Shown here piece after piece: positions 3,336 to 63,853 of a stretch of 64,000 nt of DNA. The first letter of the stretch is position 1, and every line of letters starts with the position of its first letter. The position numbers were made by a program, and so were the translations under genes. The DNA is from a virus: the IMG/VR virus record IMGVR_UViG_3300045988_135095, one strand, 5' to 3'. The notes under the pieces are model-generated. The model searched no databases. It was not told the DNA's origin and saw only the letters and a program-made list of their open reading frames with translations.

Positions 3336-3466
3336 CTTTTTAAGATTTTAATTGGTTCAACATAATCTGTGGTTAGTCAAAATAACCACTCTTTCTATAT
3401 GCAAAGATACAAAAAAAATGTGATATATGCAAATATACCACACTTTATTTTAGTTAAAAATACCAA
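3336..3466 (-). promoter_or_regulatory. Promoter/leader cassette, copy 1 (diverged)
   Basis: On the minus strand it carries TATATTTGCATATA (plus 3430-3437) and TATCTTTGCATATAG (plus 3392-3399). Both match the Bacteroidota -7 box TAnnTTTG. The leader ...GAACCAATTAAAATC.. follows, before the ATG. Confidence 0.65.
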
Positions 3467-7066: not shown

Positions 7067-7111
7067 TAGTTATCCAAAAATAAATCTTAAAACCTTAATT
7101 AAACAACTTTT

Positions 7112-40036: not shown

Positions 40037-40179
40037 AATCTTTTATAATTTTAATTGGTTCAACTTATAAGGTAGGCTCTGAATAGTCAAAAGTACTACC
40101 TTTATCTATATGCAAAGGTACGAAAATTTTCTGATATATGCAAATATACCAATGATTATTTTAGTTAAAAATACTAAAA
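40037..40179 (-). promoter_or_regulatory. Promoter/leader cassette, copy 2
   Basis: The minus strand reads TATATTTGCATATA (plus 40141-40148) ...22 nt... TACCTTTGCATATAG (plus 40113-40120). This is followed by AAAGGTAGTACTTTT and the leader GTTGAACCAATTAAAATTATAAAAGATT-ATG. Confidence 0.7.
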
Positions 40180-41651: not shown

Positions 41652-41653
41652 CC

Positions 41654-41848
41654 ATGAGAAAGAAGAAGGAAGAAGAGAAACTGCACTTTTGCCGTGAATG
41701 TGCTCATGCTACTGACTTTCATAGTATGAGCCTTAAAGGTCAGCCTATCCTAGCCAAATGCCCATATCAAGAATGGAGCGTTCTTCTCAACTGGGATTGC
41801 TGCCAACACTTTAAAATGAAATTGTATGAAAAAGCCAAAACTGCCTAA
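41654..41848 (+). CDS. Small Cys-rich protein
   Basis: 64 aa with CRECAH...CPYQEW...WDCCQHF, lying between the portal and MuF genes. Confidence 0.5.
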   Translation: MRKKKEEEKLHFCRECAHATDFHSMSLKGQPILAKCPYQEWSVLLNWDCCQHFKMKLYEKAKTA

Positions 41849-43208
41849 TCAGAAAAAGGCATATAAAGACCTTGGCAAGAGACTGAACGCTTATACCCGG
41901 AAAATCATTTCCATATATGAGACTCTTGCCAAGGAGTCCGCTAAAATCGCCACCTCCACCGACTTCGATGGGGATGGCGAGTTCTCTTTTGATGATTACC
42001 CTAGAACAGAAAGGAAGGTAAACGCCTTGTTGGATTACTATTCAAACAATATGCAGGCCTTGGTCTATAATGGCATATCGGACGAATGGAAGAATAGTAA
42101 CACCCTGCAGGACCTACTTGCCAAAAGGGTAATCGGCACCTTTACTAGGAAGATAGCGGACGCAAAGCAGAAAGCTTACTTTGAGCACAACAACGCGGCA
42201 AAGAAGGCTTTCATGGAGAGAAAGATTAAAGGTCTAGGTCTTTCAGAAAGAATATGGAACCAGAGAGCTGATGTAAAGGAGGCTCTGGAGAAATCTCTGT
42301 CTGTCGGCATAGAGAAGGGTATGAGTGCTGTTAAACTCAGCAAGAAGGTCAGCAAGTACCTTAATGATTATCCATCACTTGCCAAAGACTATAAGAAGAA
42401 ATACGGCAAAGCCATAACTATTCAGAACTGCGAGTACAGAAGCGTTCGCCTGGCACGTAACGAGATAAACATGGCCTACCGTTCTGCCGAGCAAGAAAGA
42501 TGGGCAAGGATGGACTACATTAAAGGCAAGGAAATAAAGACTACCAACAACCCAAGTCATAAGCACGATATGTGTGATTTGCTTGCAGGTGTCTATCCGA
42601 GTTATTTTCCTTGGGTTGGTTGGCACGTAAATTGTATGTGCTATGCCATCCCGGTAATAATGAGCGAGAAAGAGTATTGGAGTGGGAAACAGCCAAGCAA
42701 TGCTATGCCTAAGAACTTCACAAATTGGGTGAATGACAATAAAGACAAGGTGAAGCAATCATCCTATATCACCCAATACGCTCGCTCTGAAAGGTCACAA
42801 AGGCAAGTTCGAATAGCTGCACAGAACTCACCAGAGGTGAGGGAAAGACTTCGAGAATTCATTAATGAGACAATGCAAACAAAATTTAAAGAGGTAGAGC
42901 TACCAGACGGTCAAACGGCTAGAAGGCTTTATCTCAATAATAATAATGAGGAATTTGTGGTAGGACGAAATTTCTTTTCTGAAACGATGGCAAAGAATAT
43001 TAGAAATAGAAGACTTAGCGAAACAATACAAATTGCAGCCGATGTAAACGAATGGTTTCCTACAGCAACATTTGACAGGATTGAGGAAGGTAACCATCAT
43101 GATTTTCAGTTCAAAGTATTCCATGCTACTTATCAAGGAAAACGAATAGAATGTAAGGCTAAACTTACAAGTGAAAATATCCTTTATACTATGAGATTAC
43201 TAAACTAA
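41826..43208 (+). CDS. Head morphogenesis protein (MuF / SPP1 gp7-like) with C-terminal extension
   Basis: 460 aa. MuF-type core ..SVRLARNEINMAYRSAEQERW..HKHDMCD.. A further ~150 aa of unassigned sequence follows it. Confidence 0.8.
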   Translation: MKKPKLPNQKKAYKDLGKRLNAYTRKIISIYETLAKESAKIATSTDFDGDGEFSFDDYPRTERKVNALLDYYSNNMQALVYNGISDEWKNSNTLQDLLAKRVIGTFTRKIADAKQKAYFEHNNAAKKAFMERKIKGLGLSERIWNQRADVKEALEKSLSVGIEKGMSAVKLSKKVSKYLNDYPSLAKDYKKKYGKAITIQNCEYRSVRLARNEINMAYRSAEQERWARMDYIKGKEIKTTNNPSHKHDMCDLLAGVYPSYFPWVGWHVNCMCYAIPVIMSEKEYWSGKQPSNAMPKNFTNWVNDNKDKVKQSSYITQYARSERSQRQVRIAAQNSPEVRERLREFINETMQTKFKEVELPDGQTARRLYLNNNNEEFVVGRNFFSETMAKNIRNRRLSETIQIAADVNEWFPTATFDRIEEGNHHDFQFKVFHATYQGKRIECKAKLTSENILYTMRLLN

Positions 43209-44193: not shown

Positions 44194-44250
44194 TAGGCTC
44201 TTAGACAAAATTACTACCTTTATCCTATATGCAAAGGTACGAAAATTTTG
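44194..44250 (-). promoter_or_regulatory. Promoter cassette, partial copy (single -7 box)
   Basis: The minus strand reads TACCTTTGCATATAGGATAAAGGTAGTAATTTTG.., with the -7 box at plus 44232-44239. It lies upstream of the KilAC gene. Confidence 0.55.
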
Positions 44251-44277: not shown

Positions 44278-46026
44278 TTACGAATTTAATTTGTTGGAAA
44301 TCAGAGAGTTAGATTTGAGGTAAGCGATAAACTTATCAAGCATTCTTGACGTTCGCTCTCTAATATCCGTTTCTGTAAAATCTGTCAACGTCTGTGACAG
44401 CATTCGTAATTCGTGTATCTTAGTTCCAATCCTCTCGCCTGTGGATTTGAACTCACCATTATAATACTTAATCTTGTCAGCAAATCTGTAATCGGATGCC
44501 CGAATATTAACTCTTCGCTCCAATACCGATTTGTTTCCCAACATTTCAAGAACCTCGTCACTCGACAATCCACCTTCCTTGACTTGTCTGTTCCTTGGGA
44601 AGATGTGCTCAATGTCATATGTTGCGTCAAGAGGAAGCAATTCCTGGCTATCGAAAGAGAATGCCCACCACACAATCATCGACTTCGTAATCGCACGAGT
44701 GTTTGAAAAACTGAAGTTGGTAAATTGCGAACGGAACAATTCCTCTTGGAATAGATAGTTCTCGAAAGCAATCTCTTTGTTCTCTATGATATTCACCATC
44801 TCATTGAATACCGGTGCTCGCAAGGCTGTTATTCCTGGGTTGCTGATAGCATATGCCCAAATAAAGCCTATCAAACGATTCAAGAACAAATAGAACTTCT
44901 CGTTGTCTAGCATATTCTCAGCATTCTTATAGTGCATGAAATATACTGATACGATATATGTCCATAAACTGTTAGGCGCATAATTCAATACAAACAAGCG
45001 CTTTAGTACATCCACGGAAAAACGATCTTCGTTCTGAGAATATACATCTTTCCAGAAGTCCGCAAGCAAGACTAGATTCTCTAAAGTCTGCTCTCGTCGA
45101 AGTAGAACATATCCATCTTTCTCATAGAACTTACGAAGTCCTTCTGTCATAGAACTACGATTAGTCAGCAATGCCCTCTCGTAGTACATATAGCGTGTAA
45201 ACAACTCATCCAAAGGTGTTCCACGATATGGGTGGAATATTTTTGTAACGAGTTCGTCAAGCTCTTTCCATGTAGTGATAAACTCTTCCTTCTTTCCGAT
45301 GGATGAGTAGAACTTATAGAGCTGTGCCTTGAAGATGTCTGAGTCAGACAATGGCTTACCTCTATCATTAAGCGTCGAGAATATCCTAAGAGCAGTATCT
45401 TGCGATTCTGCCTCTATTGGAAGTAGCACACAGTTATTGAGTATGCGAGCTGGATATAATGCAAAGAAAGAAGGATATTCTTCAATGAATTTTCCTATCT
45501 TGTCTTGAAAGTATCTGAAGTTGGCAGCATACCGGCTTTTCCCTTCTGATGTTCCTTTCCGGAGTATATCCATAAACTCTTCCTTGTCGTTATCAGTTGC
45601 AACCTCCGAATTTATCTTCAAGTCGTTTGGATCATACTCTCCGAACTCATTTGCTCTCCAAATGCACTTTTCTATGTCCTCTCGCATCTTGATAGAACGA
45701 TTGTCTTTCATGTGCTCCAGGCGATTGTAGAAAGCTCGCAGTAAGAGAAGCAAGGTCGTAAGACGCTGCTGACCGTCAATGATTTCAAGTTTCCCTTCGT
45801 CATTACGGAATGTTACTATAGGACCGAGAAAGTAACTCTCTGAAGAATCGAAGCTGTCGCAGTTGTTATTCGGGAATGAAAAGGAAAATAAGTCTTCCCA
45901 TAAGACCTTACATTCGTCTTCTCCCCAAGCATACGGACGCTGATAATCAGGAATCAAGAACGTAGCTTTTTTATCTTGAAAAAGATACTTTACGTTCTTT
46001 TGATCTACTATAAGCTTTGATGACAT
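44278..46026 (-). CDS. GmrSD-family type IV (modification-dependent) restriction endonuclease (DUF262 + DUF1524)
   Basis: 582 aa. N-terminal ..IPDYQRPYAW.. and ..IIDGQQRLTTL.. (DUF262). C-terminal His-Me finger ..YDIEHIFPRN..LGNKSVLERRVN.. (DUF1524). Confidence 0.85.
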   Translation of the reverse strand: MSSKLIVDQKNVKYLFQDKKATFLIPDYQRPYAWGEDECKVLWEDLFSFSFPNNNCDSFDSSESYFLGPIVTFRNDEGKLEIIDGQQRLTTLLLLLRAFYNRLEHMKDNRSIKMREDIEKCIWRANEFGEYDPNDLKINSEVATDNDKEEFMDILRKGTSEGKSRYAANFRYFQDKIGKFIEEYPSFFALYPARILNNCVLLPIEAESQDTALRIFSTLNDRGKPLSDSDIFKAQLYKFYSSIGKKEEFITTWKELDELVTKIFHPYRGTPLDELFTRYMYYERALLTNRSSMTEGLRKFYEKDGYVLLRREQTLENLVLLADFWKDVYSQNEDRFSVDVLKRLFVLNYAPNSLWTYIVSVYFMHYKNAENMLDNEKFYLFLNRLIGFIWAYAISNPGITALRAPVFNEMVNIIENKEIAFENYLFQEELFRSQFTNFSFSNTRAITKSMIVWWAFSFDSQELLPLDATYDIEHIFPRNRQVKEGGLSSDEVLEMLGNKSVLERRVNIRASDYRFADKIKYYNGEFKSTGERIGTKIHELRMLSQTLTDFTETDIRERTSRMLDKFIAYLKSNSLISNKLNS

Positions 46027-47002: not shown

Positions 47003-47158
47003 TTATTTCTTCTTGAATTTATAGTTTGGGCAGCTTCTCTTGTTTCCCATCACAAGCAGTACCGGGAACAGCAGACCGTGCCTGCAACCATTTCCGTGCT
47101 CGTCAGCAGCCTCGCAAGAGAAGCAGCCGTAATACTCGTTAATATTTAATGCTGCCAT
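47003..47158 (-). CDS. Mini-gene (51 aa), Cys-rich
   Basis: Hand translation MAALNINEYYGCFSCEAADEHGNGCRHGLLFPVLLVMGNKRSCPNYKFKKK. TAATG overlap with the ligase stop. Confidence 0.4.
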   Translation of the reverse strand: MAALNINEYYGCFSCEAADEHGNGCRHGLLFPVLLVMGNKRSCPNYKFKKK

Positions 47159-47952
47159 TATTCGTAATCCCTAATGTTCAACAATACTGGAAATCTCGGT
47201 ACTCCAGCGTCAGAATACCCTTGATGCTGAACAGTCGCCGCCATACCTATCAACTCGTCCTTATCGGCTAAGTATTGAGCTCTGAGTGACCTTGAACCTA
47301 CCGGGCGGGCACAGAACTCGTACTCTCCACACTTCAGTTTGAATATAGCGGTACCTGCATCATTGCCCTCCGCTTCCAAAACATCGACCACCTTGAACTC
47401 TGTCGTGTCGAACGATTTCAGCTTCATAAGGTCATTGCTTCTGCCCTCGGTATATGTTCCATCTGCATTTCTGATAATGGCACCCTCGTAACCGGTAGAA
47501 ACGAATATCTTGTGCCATCGCTTGATGTCCTTCTCTGAATGGGCAACGAAAGTCTGCGTAAGGTACACCGGTCCGTTTGGATCAATGGAAGCAAACTCCT
47601 CCTGCAGAACTTTCCATCTGGCAGAAAAGCTTCCCGGAATCTGTGCATCGTAGATAACCATGCGTAGCTTGTCGGTCATAGAAGAACGGCACTTGACGGC
47701 AGAGCATATCTGTTGGAAGGTCAATTCCTGATGGTTGTATATCTCCCCATCCAGAGGAAGCATACCGCGGTGTTTCTCTCCCCAAGCCTTAATCTGAGGA
47801 ACATCATATTCCTTGCCACCTCTCGATGTGAGGTGAATCTCTCCGTCTTCTCCTTCATGAAGGATGCAACGAACTCCATCGTACTTAGGCTGGACGAAGC
47901 AAGGAAATTTCGTCTGTGACGGATAATATCTTGTTGCAAGCATTGGTTTCAT
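47158..47952 (-). CDS. lig: ATP-dependent DNA ligase (minimal phage type)
   Basis: 264 aa. Motif I KYDGVR, motif III LDGEIY, motif IV EGAIIR, motif V LMKLK. Confidence 0.85.
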   Translation of the reverse strand: MKPMLATRYYPSQTKFPCFVQPKYDGVRCILHEGEDGEIHLTSRGGKEYDVPQIKAWGEKHRGMLPLDGEIYNHQELTFQQICSAVKCRSSMTDKLRMVIYDAQIPGSFSARWKVLQEEFASIDPNGPVYLTQTFVAHSEKDIKRWHKIFVSTGYEGAIIRNADGTYTEGRSNDLMKLKSFDTTEFKVVDVLEAEGNDAGTAIFKLKCGEYEFCARPVGSRSLRAQYLADKDELIGMAATVQHQGYSDAGVPRFPVLLNIRDYE

Positions 47953-49430: not shown

Positions 49431-49572
49431 AATCTTTATAATTTTAATTGGTTCAACTTGCAAGGTAGCTCCTGTATATCCAAAAGTACTACCTTTTATC
49501 TATATGCAAAGGTACGAAAATTTTCTGATATATGCAAATATACTAACGATTATTTTAGTTAAAAATACTAAA
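49431..49572 (-). promoter_or_regulatory. Promoter/leader cassette, copy 3
   Basis: Near-identical to copy 2. -7 boxes at plus 49535-49542 (TATATTTG) and 49507-49514 (TACCTTTG). Confidence 0.7.
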
Positions 49573-51131: not shown

Positions 51132-51657
51132 TTATCTTCTGTAATTCTTTAATATCATCCAAGGACAGCTTAGGGAACTTGAAGTCCTCGCCATCCTTGC
51201 CGGTTACTTCTTGAATATGCTTATCTGCCAATCCGTTGAGCCTTGCAACAATACTGGAATCAAACTGATGAAGCATGGCGCCATCAATTTGCTGAGCCAT
51301 CACGACATTCTCAATCTGTGTTATCACCTGCTCAAAGCCTGGTCTCTTAAGATTACCTCTCTTGAAATCCGCCCATTTCTGAACGATGCCACAGAAAGCA
51401 CAAAATCCGACAAGGGTATAGGCTCTTCTGAAAACCCTTACCTCTTGTCTCATGGAATTTGTGGATTTGCCGCTGCCGCCTGCAATGGAGTTGCTACCAG
51501 TCTTTTGCTGCCAAGGGTCATTTTCAACATCATCACAGTAAGCTACAAACTTATCCCATAATTCCTGAGAAGACTTAATCTTGTATGGTCTTCCAACAGG
51601 ATTGGGGATTCTATGTACGAAAGACTTTACTTTCGGCTGTGATGATTCATCTGTCAT
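51121..51657 (-). CDS. terS: Terminase small subunit
   Basis: 178 aa overlapping terL. The N-terminal segment ..GRPYKIKSSQELWDKFVAYCD.. is typical of small terminases. Confidence 0.65.
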   Translation of the reverse strand: MTDESSQPKVKSFVHRIPNPVGRPYKIKSSQELWDKFVAYCDDVENDPWQQKTGSNSIAGGSGKSTNSMRQEVRVFRRAYTLVGFCAFCGIVQKWADFKRGNLKRPGFEQVITQIENVVMAQQIDGAMLHQFDSSIVARLNGLADKHIQEVTGKDGEDFKFPKLSLDDIKELQKINGL

Positions 51658-52271
51658 GGTTTCTTAACTTTTACTAGTTTACCGCAAGCGGAACAATTAT
51701 ACTCATAATACTCTGAAGGCTTGACCTGGATATTCTCCTCAACGCCCTTCATTTCCTCCTTGAACTTCTGGTCCTTCTGGGCTTCCGTTACGACCTTCTT
51801 AGCCGTATGGTTAGTCTCAGCCTTGGAAGGTGCGGCCGCAGGTTTCTGTTCCTTTGGCTTAGCGTTGAGTCCAAGCATACCGGCAATGCTCTCATCGAAA
51901 GCAAACTGAATGCTGTTAGGATCACCGAGATAGGAGAGCTCCTTGCGAAGCTTCTTCTCGTTCCAAGTGGCAAACTCGGACGTCTTGTCATCAGCGATTC
52001 TATACTGCTTAATCTGCTCATCAGTCAGATAGTCAACACGGATGCATGGAACCTTATCCATTCCCAATGCCTTAGCAGCCTTATACACACCGTTACCGGT
52101 TACAATCACGTTGTTCTTATCAACGGAAATAGGCTGAGTGATGCCGAAATCCTTGATGGACTGCATGATTGCCTGTACTGCCGTCTCGTCGGTCTTGTGC
52201 GAACCGTCATGAGGCACGATACTGTCAATAGGTAACTCAATTACCTTGTCATTAATCTTAATCTCTTCCAT
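51654..52271 (-). CDS. ParB/Srx-fold protein 4 (degenerate GxxR box) with C-terminal CxxC
   Basis: 205 aa. ..VIVTGNGVYKAAKALG.. occupies the place of the DGxxR box. The C-terminus is ..YNCSACGKLVKV.. The ATGA overlaps terS. Confidence 0.65.
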   Translation of the reverse strand: MEEIKINDKVIELPIDSIVPHDGSHKTDETAVQAIMQSIKDFGITQPISVDKNNVIVTGNGVYKAAKALGMDKVPCIRVDYLTDEQIKQYRIADDKTSEFATWNEKKLRKELSYLGDPNSIQFAFDESIAGMLGLNAKPKEQKPAAAPSKAETNHTAKKVVTEAQKDQKFKEEMKGVEENIQVKPSEYYEYNCSACGKLVKVKKP

Positions 52272-52276
52272 ACCTG

Positions 52277-52912
52277 TTAATCCTCAATTTCTATTGTTTC
52301 CATATTTCCGCAATATGGGCAAACGACCTTCATATAATGTGAACCGTCCTCGCGCTCTTTGAGAACGAACAAATCCTTGGCAGGGTCCTCCTCCTCATCA
52401 TCTGAAGAAGCTTCCTCGCTTTCGCCAGCCTCTTCATTGGATGGAGCCTCGAAGTTCTCCTCATCAACCTGAGAATAGTCATCCTGGAAGCCACCATACT
52501 CTTCTGCCTGCTGATTGATGCTGTCGAGGGAGAAGTTGAGCATCTGGTTGATATCCTCAAAGAAGAATGCCTGCATATCGGTAGGAACCTCCATGTTGCG
52601 CAATTCCTCCAAAAGCTGGTCTTCATCAAAGGAAGATTTCTCTGCCAGCTTGTTATCGAGGATGCGGTACTTCTTTGCCATTTCGTCGTCCATATCCGAG
52701 TAAACGACAGGAACGAACTCCATACCCAACTGGTAAGCGGCCACGTATCTTGTGTGACCGGCAATGATTACACCTGCCTTATCAACGAGGATAGGCTTAA
52801 CGAATCCAAAACGCTTGATACTCTCCTTCGTAGGCTCAACCGCATTCGTGTTGTCACGAGGGTTGTCATAGTAAGGAAAGATTTCACTGAGCTTAACTGA
52901 CTTTACTTTCAT
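52277..52912 (-). CDS. ParB/Srx-fold protein 3 with acidic linker and C-terminal zinc ribbon
   Basis: 211 aa. ..VIIAGHTRYVAAYQLG.., an acidic tract SEEASSDDEEED, and a C-terminal CPYCG. Confidence 0.7.
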   Translation of the reverse strand: MKVKSVKLSEIFPYYDNPRDNTNAVEPTKESIKRFGFVKPILVDKAGVIIAGHTRYVAAYQLGMEFVPVVYSDMDDEMAKKYRILDNKLAEKSSFDEDQLLEELRNMEVPTDMQAFFFEDINQMLNFSLDSINQQAEEYGGFQDDYSQVDEENFEAPSNEEAGESEEASSDDEEEDPAKDLFVLKEREDGSHYMKVVCPYCGNMETIEIED

Positions 52913-53571
52913 TTCTTATCCTCCTTCTTCTTGGCTGTCTCTCTTGCTACGCGTCTCTCGTCGACAACCTTTTCGATAGCCGCATTATACTTATAGCTCT
53001 TGAAAATCTTGGCGAAACCGGTAACATACTTAAGTTTTACAAGCTCTTTCTGCTCCAGACCTACCTTTTCGCAAATCTCACGCTCAGATACACCATCTCT
53101 GAGCATATTGAAGACGATGTTTACCATTCCATCTACAGAGTGACTTCCACGGGCACGATTATGTCTTACGGTTGATGCCATACGCTGGTCGATGTCCTTG
53201 TCTAGAACTACGATAGGCAGCTTTCCGCCACATCGCTCATTGATGTCCGCAAACTTGCGAATAACGAGGTTTCTGTGGAAACCGTCGATGATTACATACT
53301 TCTGCAGCTTCTCGTCCCAAATGGTAACGATAGGCATAGTGTAACCGTCTTCCCTCACGGATGTATAGAGAAGACGCATTTCCTTATCTGCCACATGGTT
53401 AGGGTTGTAGTTGTTGGCTACAACCATATCCTTGTCAACCCAAAGCACGCAATCTACAGGGTTGACTTTCTCTGGAGATAAGGAACTGATATACTTTCTG
53501 AGGTCGTTCAAAAACTGCACCTTATCCTTGGCAGCATCAAACTCCTTCTTGATGTTCTCTTGAAGATTCAT
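52909..53571 (-). CDS. IbrB-like ParB/Srx-fold protein 2
   Basis: 220 aa. ..VIIDGFHRNLV.. and ..VRHNRARGSH.. It overlaps the PP-loop ATPase gene by 35 nt. Confidence 0.75.
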   Translation of the reverse strand: MNLQENIKKEFDAAKDKVQFLNDLRKYISSLSPEKVNPVDCVLWVDKDMVVANNYNPNHVADKEMRLLYTSVREDGYTMPIVTIWDEKLQKYVIIDGFHRNLVIRKFADINERCGGKLPIVVLDKDIDQRMASTVRHNRARGSHSVDGMVNIVFNMLRDGVSEREICEKVGLEQKELVKLKYVTGFAKIFKSYKYNAAIEKVVDERRVARETAKKKEDKK

Positions 53572-54730
53572 ATTCCTTATTAGCTTTTTCTATTTTAACA
53601 TAATTGTCGCTCAAATACTGACGCAAAGAACGCTCTACGCTCTGAATGCGCTTCATTCCGAAATCTTCCGCAATGACGCAGACAGCGCTGGTATAACCAA
53701 TCTGATGTATTACGTAATCAATACACTCCTGGCAATGCCCGGCTTTAGCTACATTCCTCTTCTTGGCAGAACGGTAGCCTTTCTTGATAGTCTCCGCATT
53801 CTTCTTGTCTTCACAAAGATTGTCTGCGAGATAATCAACGTATTCATCCCAATCCTTGAAATAAGGTGGCAAATTGTAGCAGTATGTTGCTATTTCGTTA
53901 AATACGTGTACAGACGTATTGACGTTTGCAACTCTTCGTACCAACTTGTCGTAGAACCATGGATCCACTTCCTTAATGAAACCTAAGTCGTGGATAGCCT
54001 GCTCATGGATGAGGGAACTTACTCGGCACGCTCTGAGTGGCTTCTGCGTGAACTGATAGTTATAAAGCTTACAGTACGGAAGCTTGTTGCTGAAGATGTA
54101 ATACCATACATCATAAACCTTCCAATCCCAAATAGGGTAGAGCACCAGACTTCTCGGTGTGCCGTCTTTATAATATCCGCCACCACCTCCCCACGTAATA
54201 CCTGGAAGGCACTCACCTCTAGTAAGACCCGACAATCGTGCCGGCGACTCCTCGATACGGACACCACCTAAAGTTAGGTAGTCTTTGCCGAAGAGCATTC
54301 TGTGTACCTGATCAAGGGTCTTGGAGAAATACTGATTGTGCGGAATCTCCAAATCACCATATGAATCTGGTTCCTTCTCACGAATCCACTTTTCTCCTGG
54401 CCCCCATACATTGAACCATTCTCCCTTTGAGGCATTCCATTCCTGGAAGTATGACTGAATCCAATACGGCTCAACCCACGGCAAGTGCATGATGTATCGT
54501 ATGTACTCGATAGTCATTGGAGTCTCTGCCTCTTGGTCTAGGAAGAGGACGGGAATCTTTTCAATTCCCATCTCCTTCATAACCTCGTGCGCAAGGTTGA
54601 GAACCACGGTAGAGTCCTTTCCTCCCGACATCGTCACGACAATCTTACGCTTACCATAAAACTCCCGAAAGATGTATCTGAATCTTTCAAGAGCTGCCTC
54701 ATAAACGTTTTTGTCACTGTAAAATATCAT
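53537..54730 (-). CDS. IbrA-like PAPS-reductase-family PP-loop ATPase
   Basis: 397 aa. PP-loop ..VVTMSGGKDSTVV.. plus a long C-terminal domain as in IbrA/DUF3440-type proteins. Confidence 0.85.
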   Translation of the reverse strand: MIFYSDKNVYEAALERFRYIFREFYGKRKIVVTMSGGKDSTVVLNLAHEVMKEMGIEKIPVLFLDQEAETPMTIEYIRYIMHLPWVEPYWIQSYFQEWNASKGEWFNVWGPGEKWIREKEPDSYGDLEIPHNQYFSKTLDQVHRMLFGKDYLTLGGVRIEESPARLSGLTRGECLPGITWGGGGGYYKDGTPRSLVLYPIWDWKVYDVWYYIFSNKLPYCKLYNYQFTQKPLRACRVSSLIHEQAIHDLGFIKEVDPWFYDKLVRRVANVNTSVHVFNEIATYCYNLPPYFKDWDEYVDYLADNLCEDKKNAETIKKGYRSAKKRNVAKAGHCQECIDYVIHQIGYTSAVCVIAEDFGMKRIQSVERSLRQYLSDNYVKIEKANKEYESSREHQEGV

Positions 54731-55182
54731 TTCTTTCTATTGTTTAATAATACCTTGTCGCTGGAATTACTGAAATGGGTGTCAAGGTAATTCTTAAGCC
54801 TACCCATCATTTCATTATTGTTGTGGCCGCGAGCGGCATTGTGCATGATTGTTGCATATCTCAACTTCTCTTCGTCGAAGTCAACGAAGCATACAGGAAC
54901 CATCTCATATCCGATGACGCAGGCGGCGCGGTATCTGTTCTCTCCGTCAACAATCTGCATCGTCGAGCGGTTGACAACGATAGGCTGAGTAAATCCGAAA
55001 TAGAGCAACGATTTGATGAGAAGGTCGAAGCTGTCTGCATCATGCGTGTTAGGGTTATAGTCATTCGGATAAATGTCATCAACCTTGACGTATTCAATAT
55101 GCAACGGCTTCACCTGCTCAACCTCGATATTGTCCTTTGCCAATTTCAAGGCTAGATTTTCCTTAGAGTTTTTTGTATTCAT
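54727..55182 (-). CDS. ParB/Srx-fold protein 1
   Basis: 151 aa. ..QIVDGENRYRAACVIG.. and ..MHNAARGHN.. Confidence 0.7.
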   Translation of the reverse strand: MNTKNSKENLALKLAKDNIEVEQVKPLHIEYVKVDDIYPNDYNPNTHDADSFDLLIKSLLYFGFTQPIVVNRSTMQIVDGENRYRAACVIGYEMVPVCFVDFDEEKLRYATIMHNAARGHNNNEMMGRLKNYLDTHFSNSSDKVLLNNRKK

Positions 55183-55897
55183 CGAGAAATTCCTTGTTTA
55201 CGATTTCCTTAACCCAATCCTTGCTTGACTTAGCCAAATAAGGATTCTTGAACTCACTCTCCCAATCTACAGACTCAACATCAAACTGGTTGTCGTAGGT
55301 CTTACTGTTTCTAGGAATGCCACCTACGGCGCCTGGATTGTTGAACGTGCTTCTGTATGCACCGAAATGCTGAACCAGACCGGGAACGATAGCGTAAAGG
55401 TCGATACCCTTTGCTTGAAGGTATGCCTTAAGGCGCGAATCATCATAACGTGTCTGATCATCCGTCATCTTGTTTGAAGTTTCAACAAAGTCCTTGGCTA
55501 GGTCATTTGGATATACGCTAGCCTGCAGCCAGAAATTAGTCTTTGTAGAAATAACGTGCTTGCCCTTTGCGTAACAATCAGTATAGTCACCATTTGTTGG
55601 ATTGTAGAAACTGATAACGTTGTTTTCGGGAGCAAAAGAGAGAATATGTAAAATCTTGGCAAGAATGTTGCGGTCAAAGGTAATGTCATCGTGAATAACC
55701 ATGCGATGGGTTCCTTCCGCTACCTCTTGCGTCAACGCTTGGGAATAATTGTCCCAAAGACCCTTACCTCGGTCCATAGAGATACTGACAGGAATGCCAT
55801 AAGGCTTCGTGCTAGTCTCTATCAACTTCTTAAGGTATTTGCCCTCACGTTCTCGCTTCGGAACGTTGAGGATGATAATCTGAGAGAGTTTAATCAT
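55163..55897 (-). CDS. GT-A-type glycosyltransferase-like protein (GT25-like N-terminus)
   Basis: 244 aa. ..IIILNVPKREREGKYLKKL.. resembles GT25 starts. ..VIHDDITF.. is a possible DxD motif. Weak assignment. Confidence 0.5.
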   Translation of the reverse strand: MIKLSQIIILNVPKREREGKYLKKLIETSTKPYGIPVSISMDRGKGLWDNYSQALTQEVAEGTHRMVIHDDITFDRNILAKILHILSFAPENNVISFYNPTNGDYTDCYAKGKHVISTKTNFWLQASVYPNDLAKDFVETSNKMTDDQTRYDDSRLKAYLQAKGIDLYAIVPGLVQHFGAYRSTFNNPGAVGGIPRNSKTYDNQFDVESVDWESEFKNPYLAKSSKDWVKEIVNKEFLDEYKKL

Positions 55898-55905
55898 ATG
55901 CGTAA

Positions 55906-56565
55906 TTATTTAGTTACTGTCCATTCTCCACCTCGCTTGGCAATCTTGCTGATGGCTACTGCCAAACGGTTTCTGTTCATATCGCTACCATAGAAAACCT
56001 TACCTGCGTCATAGGCTGCTTGGGCAACAAGTCCTTGACCCATGAAGAAGTCTGTGATAGAACTGAACGGAACATCCTTACAAATCTTGAACACCGCATC
56101 CCATTCATCCATACCCTGGAGCCCCCAGTCTTCTGCCTGCTTGGTGCCTTGGATAATCCAGCACTTGCAATCTGGCTTATGATAATAGGTGTTCTCGTAG
56201 ATTTTTACATGAGGAAACAGCGATTCTACCATAGGAACCAATTGGTTCTTGTTTCGATAGAAGCACTCGACGAATAGTCTGTCCGGGTTAATCTGCTCGA
56301 TGCACCTCTTGATGTGGGCAACGAACTCGTCAAAATTATCAACCGGGCATTGCTTCTCCGCCTTAGTATAATACGCTTTGAGGACGCCTTTACTTCCTGC
56401 CGGGTCGATGAATACGCAATCGGCATTCTTCGAAAACTCCGGAAGCCCCAAAGTAATATCGGCAATGGTAATCTTGCTACCATTGCCTAAACTGTAAATC
56501 TCGCCTTCTGTGATGGGGTATTTATCAATACTGCCATCATAACGCAAACCTTTCTGTGATGTCAT
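55906..56565 (-). CDS. Beta-class N6/N4-DNA-methyltransferase-fold protein with DPPY replaced by DPAG
   Basis: 219 aa from the ATG at 56565. The C-terminal SAM motif ..DFFMGQGLVAQAAYDAGKVFYGSDMNRNRLAVAISKI.. is present. The N-terminal motif IV position reads ..VFIDPAGSKG.. Confidence 0.6.
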   Translation of the reverse strand: MTSQKGLRYDGSIDKYPITEGEIYSLGNGSKITIADITLGLPEFSKNADCVFIDPAGSKGVLKAYYTKAEKQCPVDNFDEFVAHIKRCIEQINPDRLFVECFYRNKNQLVPMVESLFPHVKIYENTYYHKPDCKCWIIQGTKQAEDWGLQGMDEWDAVFKICKDVPFSSITDFFMGQGLVAQAAYDAGKVFYGSDMNRNRLAVAISKIAKRGGEWTVTK

Positions 56566-57104
56566 ACGCAATTTACTATTAAATAATTGTGATACTCTGA
56601 TACGTTTTCTTCACCAAAAAGACTGCACAAGACCTTCTTTGAATAGAAAAAATGTCTGAACTCCACATCACACTTCTCATAAGTGACCGGATGATATTTC
56701 TCCTTGTAGAACATCAAGAACTTGCGAGCCTTGCACTGCGATATTGCCAGAACGGCATAACGGGAAAGATAAGATGGGGAACCGAACAATGCTACGATAT
56801 TCTCGAAATTCCTGCAATCTAAACTCTTTCCGTCGAAAGGCTCACATACAACCCTATCCTTATAGGCTGGGTATTTGTTAGTGAACTGCTCCAACATTCC
56901 TTTACTAGGATCAATTCCTAGATATTCCTGTGGGTCGATTTTTGCAATCTCTGTCAGCAAGCCGGTACCACATCCGATGTCTAGGATTGAACCGCTGAGA
57001 GGTGGGAGCATTTGCCCCACCTCACGGTTCTCAACGAGACTCATTTCATCACGAAACAAAGTGTCGTACTTACTTGCTATTTTATCATACTGGGAATAAT
57101 TCAT
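56562..57104 (-). CDS. Class I SAM-dependent methyltransferase (small)
   Basis: 180 aa. Motif I ..ILDIGCGTGLL.. and post-I ..YLGIDPS.. Confidence 0.8.
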   Translation of the reverse strand: MNYSQYDKIASKYDTLFRDEMSLVENREVGQMLPPLSGSILDIGCGTGLLTEIAKIDPQEYLGIDPSKGMLEQFTNKYPAYKDRVVCEPFDGKSLDCRNFENIVALFGSPSYLSRYAVLAISQCKARKFLMFYKEKYHPVTYEKCDVEFRHFFYSKKVLCSLFGEENVSEYHNYLIVNCV

Positions 57105-57930
57105 TTTCTACTGTTGCCTGTTGCCAGGTGATTTTTTTACTTGAAATGGTTACGAAATTCTTGTGATTGTATATGTTACAATTCGGGAACATCGATTTCA
57201 ACTGCATTCTGTCATAGGTGAAATGGTGCATTTCCTCGAACTCTGCAGGGGTGTAGTCATCCTTGTAGAACATAAGGCAATAATCCAAACCACTCTCGCC
57301 CAGTTTGCGGAGATACTGAGGCATGAAGTAGGAAGCGGTACCGAAAAGAGCAACCACAACGCTGTCTGCCGACATCCATTTCTTTATCGCCTCCTCAAAA
57401 GAAATAGTAGAACATCTTCGGAAAAAACCAGAGGTCTTCTCCCTGAACTGCTTGATTGCTTTCTTGCTAGGATCAACTCCATAATACATTTCCGGCTTTA
57501 TCTTGGTGAAAGCGACGAAGTCTCCGTTTCCGATGCCTGCCTCGAAAAATCTTCTGTCCTTGAACGTGAACATGATAGATTTTGCCATCACGTCCATTTC
57601 CTGATTCGAATAGATTCGCGGTACCGGCCACTCCAGGAAGTCGAACTCGTTGAAAACCTTCTGTCTGTTCAAAATCCAAGTAGTCTCGAATGGGTCACCC
57701 ATCGTCCAATACTTGTAACCATCAATGTAAAGGTAAGGGAAATTATACTTCCCCCATCTTTCATGGACTCCATTGTCTCGCTGTGCGCTGACGAAGTAAT
57801 AGAACTCGTCGTTTGTCAATGCGCACTTGTCTCTGTGAATGTACTCATGAGGAACGTCTATCATTGAAGTGGCCCATTGCCACTTACAACGCTTGATGAA
57901 CTCTCTGAGCTTACTGTAATCGTATTCCAT
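57085..57930 (-). CDS. Two-domain protein: N-terminal phage domain (..WQWATSM..PHEY..) + degenerate SAM-MTase paralogue
   Basis: 281 aa. The C-half parallels the 180-aa MTase: FFEAGIGNGDF / ILDIGCGTGLL, YYGVDPSKKAIKQF / YLGIDPSKGMLEQF, VVALFGTASYF / IVALFGSPSYL. Confidence 0.6.
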   Translation of the reverse strand: MEYDYSKLREFIKRCKWQWATSMIDVPHEYIHRDKCALTNDEFYYFVSAQRDNGVHERWGKYNFPYLYIDGYKYWTMGDPFETTWILNRQKVFNEFDFLEWPVPRIYSNQEMDVMAKSIMFTFKDRRFFEAGIGNGDFVAFTKIKPEMYYGVDPSKKAIKQFREKTSGFFRRCSTISFEEAIKKWMSADSVVVALFGTASYFMPQYLRKLGESGLDYCLMFYKDDYTPAEFEEMHHFTYDRMQLKSMFPNCNIYNHKNFVTISSKKITWQQATVENELFPV

Positions 57931-57935
57931 CGCTG

Positions 57936-57967
57936 CAAATTTAATAAAATATTTAATGATTAAATAT
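57936..57967 (-). promoter_or_regulatory. Late-type promoter abutting the modification/terminase operon
   Basis: The minus strand reads TAAATTTGCAGCG-ATG; the -7 box (plus 57936-57943) is only 5 nt from the start codon. The 19-bp palindrome ATATTTAATGATTAAATAT lies at 57949-57967. Confidence 0.5.
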
Positions 57968-58022
57968 CTAAAATCTAAAATTAACTATATTTTAACATAA
58001 AATTGTGCATATATGCGGCTTG

Positions 58023-58128
58023 GATAGTCAAAAACACCGCAAAATAGGCTCTTCTCATACGCAAAGGTACGAAAAAATCTCGATATATGCAAATATATCA
58101 AACGGAAATTTTAGCCAAAAATACTAAA
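58023..58128 (-). promoter_or_regulatory. Promoter cassette, copy 4 (no conserved leader)
   Basis: -7 boxes TATATTTG (plus 58090-58097) and TACCTTTG (plus 58062-58069), flanked by the GATAGTCAAAAA and AAAAATACTAAAAA blocks. Confidence 0.6.
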
Positions 58129-58130
58129 AA

Positions 58131-59402
58131 TTACGCCGTTCTACTAGCCCTGTTTGGGAGCCTGGATTCTATCTGCCACAGATTATCTTTGATAAGCTTC
58201 AGAATGGTATCGTGAAAAGCGGAATTGATGTTTCCGTGGCCCTGGCATTGAACAACGGTAACATCGGCTAAGTTTACCTCGATTGTCTCCATACGCTGCC
58301 CGTTTACCTTGGCAGAAAGTATGAGGCAGTTCGGCTTTCTGTTCACATCGTAATAACGATTCCTAAATACACAGTGCCCCATTTCCTTGCCCTCTTCAAA
58401 GAACTCCTGGACGGACTTAAGAACCTGTATGTCTATGGCGCCATCCTTTATGTCAATGTCAAAGAACTGCTTTCTTCTGTCAACATATACATTAGCCATT
58501 GCTTCTGCCTTTTTCTTATTCTCCTCTTCGGCTTTAGCAGCTTGCTCCAGATATCTGAGTTGCATTTTCTCTTCCGCAATCAGACGCAGCTTAGTCATTC
58601 TGTCCTCCATTTTCTTTTTCTTGTTGTCTGCTGCCTTTAGCCACTTGTCGTGCGCCTCACGAAGATTCTCCGGGCAAACTATAGAAGGGTTACGTACATC
58701 TTTCTTAAGATACATAATACTGTCGAGCATATCCCACCACAAGCTATCGTAAATATAAGAAGCCTTTCCGTGTCTGACAACAATCTTGACGGCAGACATT
58801 TTTTCTCTGTCGAAGACAGCTTCATGGTACTTACACACCTTCCACATATCAATATCACGTCTCATGAGAGTTTCATTGTATGGGTTAGCATTGACGGAAC
58901 GGAAGATTTCGTCACACAGAATCTTTTCCCCGAAGTCTCTGAGAGCATATTTATACTTGCCTTGGACTGAAGCGTAATATACTCCATCGAATCCAATATC
59001 ACGAGGATCACCCAAGAAACTCCATACAGTATGCGTTCTTACTTCCAACTTTCCGAAAGCAGAAAAAGCATCTTCTATATATCCGCTGGTTCGCTGCCTG
59101 GCAAGGAAAACATATTCCCCATCTTTCAACCATTGCTGCATACACTCCTTGAAGTAAATCTTCTCCTTAATCATCTTGTGGAACCGGAACTTCGCTCTTA
59201 CCTGAAAGTATCTGAGGACCTGCCATCCCTTGAATGTGCATACTAGATAGAAACACCCTCTTGAAAATCTGTCACCATACTTGTAGGCATCATCTTCAGA
59301 GATGCAAGTCTTGATGGCCCACTCACGCTGTTTGTCTGATAACTCCGGAATTCTGTCCGAGAGTTTTACAACTTTACGTTCTGTCTTATTTCTTGGCTTC
59401 AT
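58131..59402 (-). CDS. PcfJ-like protein
   Basis: 423 aa. The C-terminal ..EEGKEMGHCVFRNRYY.. motif and the pairing with a PcfK-like gene match Bacteroidota mobile elements. Confidence 0.65.
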   Translation of the reverse strand: MKPRNKTERKVVKLSDRIPELSDKQREWAIKTCISEDDAYKYGDRFSRGCFYLVCTFKGWQVLRYFQVRAKFRFHKMIKEKIYFKECMQQWLKDGEYVFLARQRTSGYIEDAFSAFGKLEVRTHTVWSFLGDPRDIGFDGVYYASVQGKYKYALRDFGEKILCDEIFRSVNANPYNETLMRRDIDMWKVCKYHEAVFDREKMSAVKIVVRHGKASYIYDSLWWDMLDSIMYLKKDVRNPSIVCPENLREAHDKWLKAADNKKKKMEDRMTKLRLIAEEKMQLRYLEQAAKAEEENKKKAEAMANVYVDRRKQFFDIDIKDGAIDIQVLKSVQEFFEEGKEMGHCVFRNRYYDVNRKPNCLILSAKVNGQRMETIEVNLADVTVVQCQGHGNINSAFHDTILKLIKDNLWQIESRLPNRASRTA

Positions 59403-59412
59403 AACTCACATA

Positions 59413-59847
59413 TTAAAAATCAAACAAACTCAACTGACCAATCTCAGCATCTTTCTTTCTCTGAGCCTCGGCTTTCTTCTTCAAGCGCTCCTTCTCAGCG
59501 GACTCCTTCTTCTGGAGTTCGATGATTTTGGCTTGCTTGAATTCCTCCTCAGCCTTCTTCTCCAGATTCTCCTTGGTCTGGTCTGAGAGATTTGTAACAA
59601 TGGTGCAATTCTGATTCTTGGTGAATGAAACTTCTTCTTCATTATAATAGTGAATTGCAATTCCATAAATCTCATCATCGTCAAACCCCTGTCTTCCGGA
59701 TTTCTTGACCTCTGAGATAATAAAGTCGCAGCAGTCATCGATATTCTTGCCAGGCTTGGCGTAATCCTTTGCGAACAATTCATCCTCTGCTGCACGCTTG
59801 TCAAGATATGCCTTGATTATCTTCTTGAATGTTTCTGATCCTTTCAT
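59413..59847 (-). CDS. PcfK-like protein (family that includes AcrIIA9-type anti-CRISPRs)
   Basis: 144 aa. N-terminus MKGSETFKKIIKAYLDKRAAEDELFAKDYAKPGKNIDDC. ..DDEIYGIAIHYYNEEE.. C-terminus ..QLSLFDF. Confidence 0.7.
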   Translation of the reverse strand: MKGSETFKKIIKAYLDKRAAEDELFAKDYAKPGKNIDDCCDFIISEVKKSGRQGFDDDEIYGIAIHYYNEEEVSFTKNQNCTIVTNLSDQTKENLEKKAEEEFKQAKIIELQKKESAEKERLKKKAEAQRKKDAEIGQLSLFDF

Positions 59848-60046: not shown

Positions 60047-60197
60047 TCCTTTTCGCCAGCAAAGCCTTTGACCTTATTAATCTTCTAGCCAAATCAAAGT
60101 CTTTGGGCCTTGTGGATTTTTCATTAATAAAAGCTGCTGCTTTTTCTAGAACACTAAGCAGTTCTCTGAACTCAGTCTTCGTTGTCTTCACTTCCAT
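60009..60197 (-). CDS. Hypothetical protein
   Basis: 62 aa. The ATG sits in an AAAGCGTATG context. It overlaps the next gene by 38 nt. Confidence 0.4.
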   Translation of the reverse strand: MEVKTTKTEFRELLSVLEKAAAFINEKSTRPKDFDLARRLIRSKALLAKRNGSLQGESGDSH

Positions 60198-60366
60198 ACG
60201 CTTTCTGTGCCGTTATAATTCTACAACCGGTGTAATCGTCGGCAGAAAGGACAATCTCACCATTCTTAACCTTTTCTCTAATCATGGAGCAAGCATCCGT
60301 ATTTGATTCTGCCTCTACGGTTATTGTCTTACTCAAAGTTTCTTGAATGCAAACGTCATATTTCAT
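60172..60366 (-). CDS. Hypothetical protein
   Basis: 64-aa ORF. Confidence 0.45.
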   Translation of the reverse strand: MKYDVCIQETLSKTITVEAESNTDACSMIREKVKNGEIVLSADDYTGCRIITAQKAYGSEDNED

Positions 60367-63710: not shown

Positions 63711-63853
63711 AATCTTTATAAATTTAATTGGTTCAACTTGTAAGATAGGCTCTGAATAGTCAAAAGTACTACCTTTTATCTATATGCAAAGGTACTAAAA
63801 TTTTCTGATATATGCAAATTTACCAACGATTATTTTAGTTAAAAATACTAAAT
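63711..63853 (-). promoter_or_regulatory. Promoter/leader cassette, copy 5
   Basis: Near-identical to copies 2 and 3. -7 boxes at plus 63815-63822 (TAAATTTG) and 63787-63794 (TACCTTTG). Confidence 0.7.

Follow-up and report, generated by a model that had tools for sequence, protein, structure and literature searches.

What does a run of nine genes that combines methyltransferase (MTase) folds, a glycosyltransferase (GT)-like protein, a PP-loop enzyme and four ParB-fold proteins do for a phage when it leads directly into the terminase genes? The question is raised by a stretch of viral DNA of 64,000 nucleotides (nt), IMG/VR record IMGVR_UViG_3300045988_135095, which in its whole length is termed the window here. 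Its nine co-directional genes, named g1 to g9 in transcription order (Table 1), run along the minus strand from 57930 to 51654 and continue into terS and terL, exactly where a preliminary description made from the sequence alone had placed them. The DNA of the window belongs to a temperate phage or prophage with a tyrosine integrase (126-1436), a portal of the SPP1 type, an E-type major capsid protein and a terminase whose large subunit is 49% identical to the TerL of Bacteroides fragilis phages.

On balance, we think it probable that the locus is a conserved, co-transcribed module which modifies phage DNA post-replicatively with the assistance of ParB-fold proteins, and in which we infer both the substrate and the chemistry. 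The preliminary description had read it as a DNA hypermodification pathway; of that reading the folds, the single predicted transcription unit, the conserved linkage and several pointers to DNA are borne out, and the remainder is worded below as a proposal. DNA is taken as the probable substrate because four of the proteins have ParB folds, g3 has the fold of a DNA amino-methyltransferase, the N-terminal domain of g1 is found fused to nucleases, and the PP-loop region of the IbrA-type protein g6 resembles DndC and BrxP.

Conservation of the module in phages and bacterial genomes

Judged from sequence comparison, the module is ancient and conserved from Bacteroidota to Actinomycetota phages. 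Gene order is kept in lineages where g4, the GT-like gene, retains only 41-55% identity. In L011/L012 (g4 55%) the genes read MTase, a gene of 185 amino acids (aa), g4, ParB, a 225-aa gene, a g4 paralogue, IbrA, IbrB, ParB, ParB, terS, terL and portal. L009 (g4 47% by blastp, 44% in the alignment) has a standalone g1 N-domain, an NNMT-type MTase, g4, ParB, a PF01555 MTase, IbrA, IbrB and the terminase, and L096/L097/L010 (g4 41%) have MTase, g4 paralogue, g4, ParB, IbrA and IbrB.

The same order is preserved in Microbacterium phage Hendrix, a lytic actinobacterial (soil) phage that is unrelated to the window, has a circularly permuted genome (PMC7302621) and holds homologues of g4, g1, g6, g7 and g8/g9. 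Here gp154 is the g4 homologue (blastp 3e-9, hidden Markov model (HMM) 3e-11, Foldseek 6e-10), gp155 a glycosyltransferase, gp156 g1-like in both domains (HMM 5e-11), gp157 a GNAT protein and gp158 an IbrA with PAPS_reduct and DUF3440 (36% identity, 8e-49); gp1 is IbrB (48% identity, 3e-61), gp2 and gp3 are ParBs homologous to g8 and g9, gp4 is a helix-turn-helix (HTH) protein resembling TerS, gp5 the terminase and gp10 a DNA ligase. Because the order persists in diverged lineages and in an actinobacterial phage, the arrangement of the operon is not due to chance.

Shorter versions surround IbrA in further cultured phages. Arthrobacter phage Laroye has ParB, a 493-aa gene, ParB, IbrA, IbrB, a small class I MTase, HTH and terL; Bacillus phage 031MP003 has ParB, IbrA, a small MTase and an IbrB-like ParB; Mycobacterium phage Athena has ParB, IbrA, ParB and terL; Faecalibacterium phage Taranis has a ParB-like gene, IbrA, IbrB, terS and terL; and in Flavobacterium phage FCL-2 the IbrA/IbrB pair lies between terL and portal. 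In total, IbrA-like genes were counted in at least 223 cultured phage records. Lack of conserved linkage to the IbrA/ParB genes had been named beforehand as an outcome fatal to the DNA reading; GT-like and MTase-like genes are in fact linked to IbrA/ParB in distant phages.

In bacterial genomes, IbrA and IbrB are adjacent in at least 10 genera. This census used about 16 GTDB loci with strong full-length IbrA scores, and the other loci of the scan were set aside because the PP-loop pattern returned many unrelated loci of the PAPS-reductase family. The exact g6 protein occurs in 1283 blocks of an assembly collection, on contigs of up to more than 1 Mb, which fits a host element that is a very common human-gut Bacteroidales prophage. 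Scans of viral contigs gave mostly near-identical prophage copies, with little diversity past L096-L099 and L102. In L098, L099, L102 and L160, g1-g5 are 85-95% identical to the window and g6-g9 are 55-75% identical, a pattern that indicates recombination at the g5/g6 boundary and, by alignment, two exchangeable sub-modules.

A predicted transcription unit from g1 to terL

Of the ten junctions between g1 and terL, eight are overlaps and two are gaps, of 8 and 5 nt (in order -20, -4, +8, -20, -4, -35, -4, +5, -4 and -11 nt, negative values being overlaps); the overlaps include 20 nt between g4 and g5, 35 nt between g6 and g7 and 4 nt between g9 and terS. The sole sizeable non-coding gap of the unit (57931-58130) contains a promoter-like element, which on the minus strand reads TTTG, 20 nt, TACCTTTG and matches the Bacteroides -33/-7 consensus. 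Its second copy, just 3' of terL, probably marks where the next transcription unit begins, and the two copies bracket exactly g1 to terL. Because of the overlaps and of the single non-coding gap with its element, g1 to terL are regarded as one predicted transcription unit, in agreement with the claim in the preliminary description that the nine genes form a unit with terS/terL.

The -33/-7 consensus is an established feature of Bacteroides promoters. Further intergenic copies of the element lie at 3401-3437, 40112-40148, 44231-44245 and 63786-63822, giving 5-6 occurrences overall in the window, all of them intergenic; the element gave 13 matches against 2.1 expected, and none of 100 shuffles got to 13. 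We think that the repeated element probably acts as a promoter. Generic sigma-70 promoter and intrinsic-terminator scans stayed at background level, and the repeated Bacteroides-type element was preferred instead. The element is 40-70 nt long and stands 5' of minus-strand gene blocks; its core on the plus strand is GCAAAGGTACGAAAA, about 6 nt, GATATATGCAAATATA, and the minus strand shows the Bacteroides -33 TTTG and -7 TAnnTTTG motifs. It seems to divide the phage into about five transcription units with one common promoter type.

Table 1. Genes of the operon, terminase genes and promoter-like elements, with their positions in the window
Feature	Coordinates	Strand	Length	Description
Promoter-like element, 5' of g1	58057-58128	-	~70 nt	Repeat families D1 and D5
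g1	57930-57085	-	281 aa	Two-domain protein
g2	57104-56562	-	180 aa	Small class I S-adenosylmethionine (SAM)-dependent methyltransferase fold
g3	56565/56571-55906	-	219/221 aa	Beta-class (N6/N4) DNA methyltransferase fold
g4	55897-55163	-	244 aa	GT-A-fold (GT25-like) glycosyltransferase-like
g5	55182-54727	-	151 aa	Short ParB N-domain protein
g6	54730-53537	-	397 aa	IbrA-type PP-loop ATP pyrophosphatase
g7	53571-52909	-	220 aa	IbrB-type ParB/Srx-fold partner of IbrA
g8	52912-52277	-	211 aa	ParB N-domain protein
g9	52271-51654	-	205 aa	ParB N-domain protein, g8 paralogue
terS	51657-51121	-		Small terminase subunit; GP3_package 8e-14; phrog_606 1e-20
terL	51131-49653	-		Large terminase subunit, final gene of predicted unit
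Second promoter-like copy, just 3' of terL	49502-49572	-		Families D1 and D5; 82-85% identical to 58057-58128

The terL product is 49-57% identical to TerL proteins of a Bacteroides fragilis phage and of the gut virome, and its annotated TerL matches are 32-34% identical.

IbrA and IbrB

The g6 product matches PAPS_reduct (PF01507) at 9e-17 (62 bits against a cut-off of 22.5), with SGGKDS at residues 35-40, matches DUF3440 (PF11922) at 1.4e-5 (25.4 bits against a cut-off of 25) and aligns over residues 4-354 to phrog_2302 at 4e-67. The three marks by which an IbrA/IbrB pair is recognised are thus all found, namely SGGxDS within PAPS_reduct, a C-terminal DUF3440 and an adjacent ParB/Srx-fold partner. 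When nine IbrA sequences of Bacteroidota, Actinomycetota and metagenomic phages are aligned (A5), SGGKDS, DxE, GxRxxE, PIxDW and RVS..H are retained, and there is neither an invariant cysteine nor an ECGLH motif. Against family models g6 scored 19 bits for TIGR00434 (cut-off 165) and 28 for PRK02090 (cut-off 154), both for CysH, and 33 for the DndC/SspD model TIGR03183 (cut-off 290, matched in the PP-loop alone); CysD models were likewise far below cut-off and matched in the PP-loop only. DndC requires a 4Fe-4S cluster and a cysteine dyad (PMC10853773). DndA/D/E, SspB/C and a cysteine desulfurase were all absent from the operon and its flanks in Pfam, the precomputed lists and PADLOC.

Because the invariant cysteine and the CysH motif are lacking, IbrA is, by its motif content, neither a sulfur-metabolism gene nor DndC-like. 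This bears on annotation at large, where IbrA-like genes are routinely read as sulfur auxiliary metabolic genes, a reading that the sequence evidence contradicts. Membership of a defence system was rejected as well, with PADLOC returning only BrxP/DndC matches restricted to the PP-loop and ParB-domain matches to type II MTase models.

The partner g7 has no match in Pfam. It matches phrog_2159 (ParB-like) at 1e-62, carries the motifs DGFHR and HNRARG, and is 45-49% identical to the IbrA-neighbour genes of Flavobacterium phages 1H and FCL-2, of Streptococcus phage CHPC877 (annotated IbrB) and of Hendrix (gp1). A g7-type gene adjoins IbrA in all of the about 20 lineages that were examined with enough flank.

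The GT-A protein g4 and its ParB neighbour g5

No sequence library, including Pfam and PF01755, gave a match to g4, which belongs to a small family of 43 clusters. Single-sequence and profile searches against PDB sequences yielded nothing useful, megablast of the operon against cultured phages and tblastn of g4 against phages returned no match, and a profile scan of GTDB species genomes found no relative. The assignment comes from structure prediction. The AlphaFold2 (AF2) model (predicted local distance difference test, pLDDT, 88; predicted template modelling score, pTM, 0.88) shows a single Rossmann-like GT-A fold and compares with GT-A enzymes at template modelling (TM) scores of 0.5-0.79. 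Foldseek matches reach a probability of 1.0 and comprise Mimivirus R655 (5e-7), heparosan synthase and B3GalT5 in the PDB, and a Siphoviridae protein (2e-13), Ardmore gp87 (2e-11) and the 'glycosyltransferase' of Hendrix (6e-10) in BFVD. In alignment A1, strand 64-69 is followed at once by the invariant pair D70 and D71, a candidate for the acidic DxD-type motif for metal and nucleotide sugar; D/E75 is mostly conserved, and Q176 and H177 are invariant.

A second, shorter g4 paralogue of 25-27% identity occurs in L010 (2596-3192), L096 (960-1556), L097 (1312-1908) and L011 (11843-12511), with its place either immediately 5' of g4 or between ParB and IbrA. Its presence suggests that these lineages perform two successive sugar-transfer steps.

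The neighbour g5 matches ParB_N at 1e-12, has a near-canonical nucleotide-binding box (DGENRYRAA) and comes directly after g4 in all those g4-bearing lineages examined whose sequence is intact on the downstream side. It is also the best conserved of the set, with 62-77% identity where g4 has 41-55% and g6 has 34-50%.

The other ParB-fold proteins

Both g8 and g9 match ParB_N (5e-9 and 6e-8) and phrog_620 (6e-42 and 1e-39) and end in a C-terminal CxxC tail. An acidic linker is present in g8, which is also similar to phrog_498, a family of ParB-MTase fusions, over the ParB portion (9e-32); the nucleotide box of g9 is degenerate (GNGVYKAA). Canonical partition ParBs join to ParB_N a central HTH and a C-terminal dimerisation domain and have a ParA partner, features that the operon ParBs lack: ParB_N alone was detected in g5, g8 and g9, their scores against TIGR00180 were 32-48 bits against 58, and no ParA gene was found. 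Nor did the 49-59.5 kb region, searched for inverted-repeat arrays of parS type, yield anything convincing. The operon ParBs belong with the orphan proteins of ParB-CTPase fold that PMC12704722 surveys.

The SAM-fold proteins g1, g2 and g3

All nine fold assignments of the preliminary description hold, with one correction. It had called g1 a two-domain MTase-like protein, and the C-terminal part is indeed a class I SAM methyltransferase fold (residues ~100-265), while the N-terminal ~95 aa form a separate domain that is no MTase. No match to g1 itself was found in Pfam, PHROG or NCBIfam, and Methyltransf_25 is matched by 22 of 34 g1 homologues in a family of about 1800 member sequences. The C-terminal half is paralogous to g2 (3e-18). 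In the PDB the neighbours of the AF2 model (pLDDT 93) are AzeJ, the C3'-methyltransferases of nucleoside diphosphate (NDP)-sugars TcaB9/KijD1, and CcbJ; the sequence profile is closest to plantazolicin N-methyltransferases.

The N-domain of g1 (57628-57930, minus strand; residues 1-101) is conserved more strongly than the rest of the protein, with the motifs W.WA.T..PHEYI, YIDGYKYWTMG and NRQK, and Pfam holds no model for it. An exhaustive search recovered a family of 1019 clusters at 50% identity, which are mostly standalone proteins of ~100 aa. Its fusions are to PD-(D/E)XK nucleases (PDDEXK_4; three cases), to one GmrSD_N protein and to class I methyltransferases. The domain is standalone in L009, L198 and L200, is present in Hendrix gp156, and lies alone 5' of ParB-IbrA-IbrB in two alphaproteobacterial genomes. 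Since the nucleases to which it is fused are of the modification-dependent restriction type, its distribution suggests a domain that binds or reads DNA. One protein of 4529 aa matches the N-domain in 32 stretches.

The small protein g2 matches Methyltransf_25 at 1e-7, as well as Methyltransf_12 and Methyltransf_11, and phrog_4752 at 1e-7; its motif I is ILDIGCGTG, and its NCBIfam matches are all well under the family cut-offs. The idea of Laroye gp8 and Bacillus gp83 as g2 orthologues found no support, the likeness being confined to motif I. The small MTases beside IbrA/IbrB in Laroye (L259 5528-6106) and 031MP003 (L260 6079-6630) form a distinct class I SAM-methyltransferase family of ~185-190 aa and are homologous to each other (30% identity, 4e-23).

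Translation of g3 probably begins with the ATG at 56565, giving 219 aa. No library match exceeded threshold, the C-terminal match to PF01555 being at 0.008 (16.5 bits against a cut-off of 26.7), and searches of g1 and g3 against PDB sequences gave generic MTase matches only. The order of motifs is that of the beta class, motif IV followed by motif I (DFFMGQG). Within the family of 53 clusters one member of 43% identity has both PF01555 and DPPW, and the family profile finds M.MboIIA at 0.0014. Motif IV is DPAG in the window clade, in place of the (D/N/S)PP(Y/F/W/H) of the beta class, and DPPG, DPPC or DPPW in distant members (alignments A2 and A6). The preliminary description had spoken of an altered catalytic motif, and rightly so, because DPAG replaces the canonical motif IV in the alignment while the beta-class order is kept. 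Alignment places g3 in the fold and lineage of beta-class DNA methyltransferases; catalytic equivalence is doubtful. Genes resembling g3 flank IbrA/IbrB in a Ruminococcus and a Sphingobacterium genome (200-204 bits), with DPPC as motif IV.

A proposed pathway for modification before packaging

Several published systems provide precedents for ParB-fold partners of DNA-modifying enzymes (PMC13229309, PMC12783734, PMC12839542). In one case a DNA thymine dioxygenase depends for its activation on a cognate ParB homologue of the phage (PMC13229309). The CmoA/CmoX/CmoY pathway, which builds 5-glycylcarboxymethylcytosine on phage DNA and in which an AMP-forming ligase extends the base, has ParBc genes in its company (PMC12783734), and the partner of DpdA, DpdB, is an ATPase resembling ParB. 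Fusions of phage ParB domains to N6_N4 and class I MTases are common, and the domains bind CTP, ATP or GTP (PMC12704722). Phage DNA can also be glycosylated by GT-A enzymes.

We propose a ParB-adaptor pathway because the types of parts in the operon fit group transfer on nucleic acid and because of these precedents. In this proposal g5, g7, g8 and g9 would bind nucleotide and DNA, and each would deliver or activate its cognate enzyme on phage DNA, in a role parallel to that in the ParB/T-dioxygenases and DpdB/DpdA; the likely pairs would be g4 with g5, g6 with g7, and g3 and/or g1 with g8/g9. A SAM-fold enzyme would put a first group on the base, for which the candidate is g3 with the base-stacking aromatic residue of its motif IV replaced; g1 and g2 may assist in this step, g1 perhaps tethered to DNA through its reader-like N-terminal domain. 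IbrA (g6), which is without catalytic cysteines, would then adenylate an oxygen, either of the base itself or of the group already put there, so that a nucleophile could be joined, following the adenylation logic of CmoY/TilS and not sulfur insertion. Glycosylation by g4 would come last, and the sugar may be methylated by g1 or g2. With one predicted promoter serving terS/terL as well as the nine genes, expression of the enzymes would fall in the packaging stage, as concatemeric DNA nears packaging; the tie to packaging may go no further than this co-transcription.

A bolder version of this proposal, which we hold only tentatively, would make IbrA/IbrB the core of a new and widespread class of phage DNA hypermodification. 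Annotations have for two decades called the pair 'prophage co-activators' or sulfur auxiliary metabolic genes. In this version a cysteine-free PP-loop enzyme would adenylate a DNA base, or a group put on it by an atypical transferase of DNA-MTase fold, after which a GT25-like enzyme and reader-tethered methyltransferases would make a (methylated) glycosyl adduct; dedicated ParB nucleotide switches, loaded near pac/terS, would bring each enzyme only to phage DNA that is on the point of being packaged.

Alternative explanations

Modification of DNA has to be weighed against a number of observations that speak against it. No enzyme that would make a handle on the base (5mYOX/TET, a thymidylate-synthase-like hydroxymethylase or a C5-MTase) was found by Pfam in the operon or, in precomputed lists, within ~10 kb on each side. 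Among solved structures, those closest to g1 and g2 belong to methyltransferases of small molecules, peptides or NDP-sugars and not to DNA enzymes, and g3 could be inactive, its canonical catalytic tetrapeptide being absent. The GT25-type fold neighbours of g4 act elsewhere on proteins or lipopolysaccharide (LPS), and one of them, Mycobacterium phage Ardmore gp87 (Glyco_transf_25, 8e-8), has no IbrA nearby. In L072, a natural variant of the prophage, a deletion has joined g4 codons 1-19 to g5 codons 71-146 (at 7107-7393), so that g4 and its ParB neighbour were lost together while the other seven genes are intact; either the step of g4 and g5 is dispensable or the contig is defective. In Streptococcus phage CHPC877, IbrA/IbrB lie away from the terminase.

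The main rival splits the operon into two unrelated functions, with g1-g4 methylating and glycosylating virion proteins or another non-DNA target and with IbrA/IbrB and the ParBs acting separately. It has a model in the Corndog-type cassette of cluster O mycobacteriophages (an O-MTase and three GTs in the morphogenesis module), the targets of which are the capsid and the tail tube (PMC4351075; PMC11600133, which cites Freeman et al. 2023). The GT25-like fold neighbours of g4, among them Ardmore gp87 beside a GT2 gene and away from IbrA, the NDP-sugar C-methyltransferases among the structural neighbours of g1, and the recombination of g1-g5 and g6-g9 as separate blocks in L098, L099, L102 and L160 point the same way. 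We nevertheless consider it unlikely: all examined lineages whose downstream flank is intact keep g5 directly behind g4, the g1 N-domain elsewhere has DNases as fusion partners and also occurs alone beside ParB-IbrA-IbrB, homologues of g4 and g1 stand directly beside IbrA in an actinobacterial phage, and the g4 paralogue of L011 sits between the ParB and IbrA genes. Slightly less probable still is a purely regulatory role, in which the ParBs and IbrA/IbrB would control late transcription or the initiation of packaging (pac-site recognition or nicking, DNA condensation) with no base modification, and the SAM-fold proteins would be ordinary methylases. The conserved position directly 5' of terS/terL in many phages would suit it, as would the DNA ligase 3' of terL in both the window and Hendrix and the ability of ParB/Srx proteins to nick DNA and hydrolyse nucleoside triphosphates; yet a PP-loop adenylating enzyme with invariant catalytic residues is not expected of a pure regulator, GT-A, GNAT and MTase partners imply group-transfer chemistry, and IbrA/IbrB are also found away from the terminase.

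Could the target be RNA or a small molecule, with tRNA modified against anticodon nucleases, or an immune-signalling nucleotide modified or depleted? Many PP-loop enzymes (TilS, ThiI, TtcA) act on tRNA and class I methyltransferases are classic tRNA modifiers, g2 matches phrog_4752, a 'tRNA methyltransferase', and weakly matches CmoB-type models, and the ParB-fold proteins, besides binding ATP, CTP or GTP, count kinases such as SerK among their members. The DNA methyltransferase lineage of g3, the DNase fusions of the g1 N-domain, the consistent linkage to terminase across phages and the lack of any tRNA gene in the window make this improbable in our estimate. Least credible of all is a role for g6 in sulfur chemistry, whether as a PAPS reductase of the CysH type, an auxiliary metabolic enzyme that would boost sulfur assimilation by the host, or as a DndC/SspD-like enzyme of DNA phosphorothioation. 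Its Pfam PAPS_reduct match, its PP-loop similarity to DndC and BrxP and the usual reading of viral 'PAPS reductase' in the literature are set against the low cysH and DndC scores given above (the latter from the PP-loop only), the missing ECGLH motif and invariant cysteine, and the lack of DndA/D/E, SspB/C or a cysteine desulfurase nearby; a sulfur-enzyme identity is thereby largely refuted by sequence.

Comparison with known systems

Post-replicative DNA-modification clusters with ParB partners are already known, and a composition with a central IbrA is not described in the searchable literature, which for IbrA/IbrB, DUF3440 or the extended module holds annotations and no experimental characterisation. 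The statement in the preliminary description that no characterised system has this composition therefore stands for the searchable literature, with the CmoA/CmoX/CmoY genes with ParBc and the 5mYOX clusters with ParB and GT as close logical analogues.

The IbrA/IbrB pair itself shares with g6/g7 the PP-loop, DUF3440, the adjacent overlapping ParB-fold partner and the phage or prophage setting; in the window, however, the pair lies within a larger conserved set with a GT25-like protein, an MTase with a reader domain, an altered DNA-MTase fold and three more ParBs. CmoA/CmoX/CmoY of Synechococcus phage S-B43 (PMC12783734) combine a class I SAM-fold enzyme, a transferase of DNA methyltransferase fold and an ATP-dependent AMP-forming enzyme that extends the installed group, often with ParB-domain neighbours, and act post-replicatively in phages, as is proposed here. 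This resemblance is one of logic and fold classes only, as no part is orthologous and none of the three families was matched in the operon: the fold of CmoX is that of C5-cytosine MTases and the fold of g3 that of beta-class amino-MTases, CmoY resembles asparagine synthetase where g6 has PAPS_reduct/DUF3440, and the Cmo pathway is without a glycosyltransferase. The 5mYOX (TET/JBP-like) clusters (PMC13229309; bioRxiv 10.1101/2023.12.21.572611) likewise pair ParB with a DNA-modifying enzyme, include GT-A and GT-B DNA glycosyltransferases and methyltransferases, and are often near the terminase. The operon, in contrast, has no dioxygenase or hydroxymethylase and hence no known hydroxyl handle, its g4 is GT25-like (DD) and not JGT/TarP-like (R...DDD...EDY), and a PP-loop enzyme is central.

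In the Dnd, Ssp and type-4 BREX systems (DndC/SspD/BrxP with DndB), a PP-loop enzyme of the PAPS-reductase superfamily is again accompanied by a ParB-superfamily protein and acts on DNA. They differ in that IbrA is without the Fe-S/cysteine features and lacks desulfurase, DndD/E and SspB/C partners, and in that they form host defence islands, whereas the module of the window is phage-encoded and terminase-linked. The virion glycosylation cassettes of mycobacteriophages (Corndog, Che8) resemble the operon in having MTase and GT genes in or near morphogenesis genes, and g4 has a likeness, at the level of fold only, to GT25-like gp87 of Ardmore, a phage of cluster F1. These cassettes are without ParB, IbrA or DNA-MTase-fold partners, while here the GT is tied to a ParB gene and the MTase g1 bears a domain otherwise fused to DNases.

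Whatever its nature, the activity of the operon occurs at scale in the human gut, and there is a real chance that its chemistry is new to science. If the proposal is true, it would add a new chemistry, PP-loop activation without sulfur together with a sugar, to the anti-restriction repertoire of phages, would give a function to a domain family of about 1000 clusters that is fused to type IV-like nucleases, and would extend the emerging rule that ParB-fold proteins are adaptors for DNA-modifying enzymes. It would also matter for the sequencing and engineering of Bacteroides phages and offer a source of DNA-labelling enzymes. The cultured relatives Hendrix, Laroye, Athena/Pipefish and FCL-2 make the question directly testable.

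Neighbouring genes in the window

Directly 5' of the operon lie genes of the PcfJ, PcfK and DpnD/PcfM families (58131-59847 and 60172-60366, minus strand), which are typical of conjugative elements; in precomputed Pfam lists of identical contigs they come after DnaB and a DUF7659 gene. The layout of the packaging module is unusual, in that the SPP1-type portal gene and a 460-aa open reading frame (40236-43208, plus strand) are on the strand opposite to terL and the other structural genes, and the portal block is separated from terL by ~6.4 kb of accessory genes for a ligase, GmrSD and an ANT antirepressor. Among these, 44278-46026 (minus strand) encodes a homologue of GmrSD-type (DUF262/DUF1524) type IV restriction enzymes (PADLOC models HEC-06, Orf5 and SspE), of which the characterised relatives target modified DNA; the otherwise syntenic L007 has a different gene at this position, which points to a variable slot for defence or moron genes. 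An ATP-dependent DNA ligase (47158-47952, minus strand) is encoded a few genes 3' of terL, as it likewise is in Hendrix (gp10; L176 5429-6466), and it may belong to the same conserved super-module or relate to nicked DNA.

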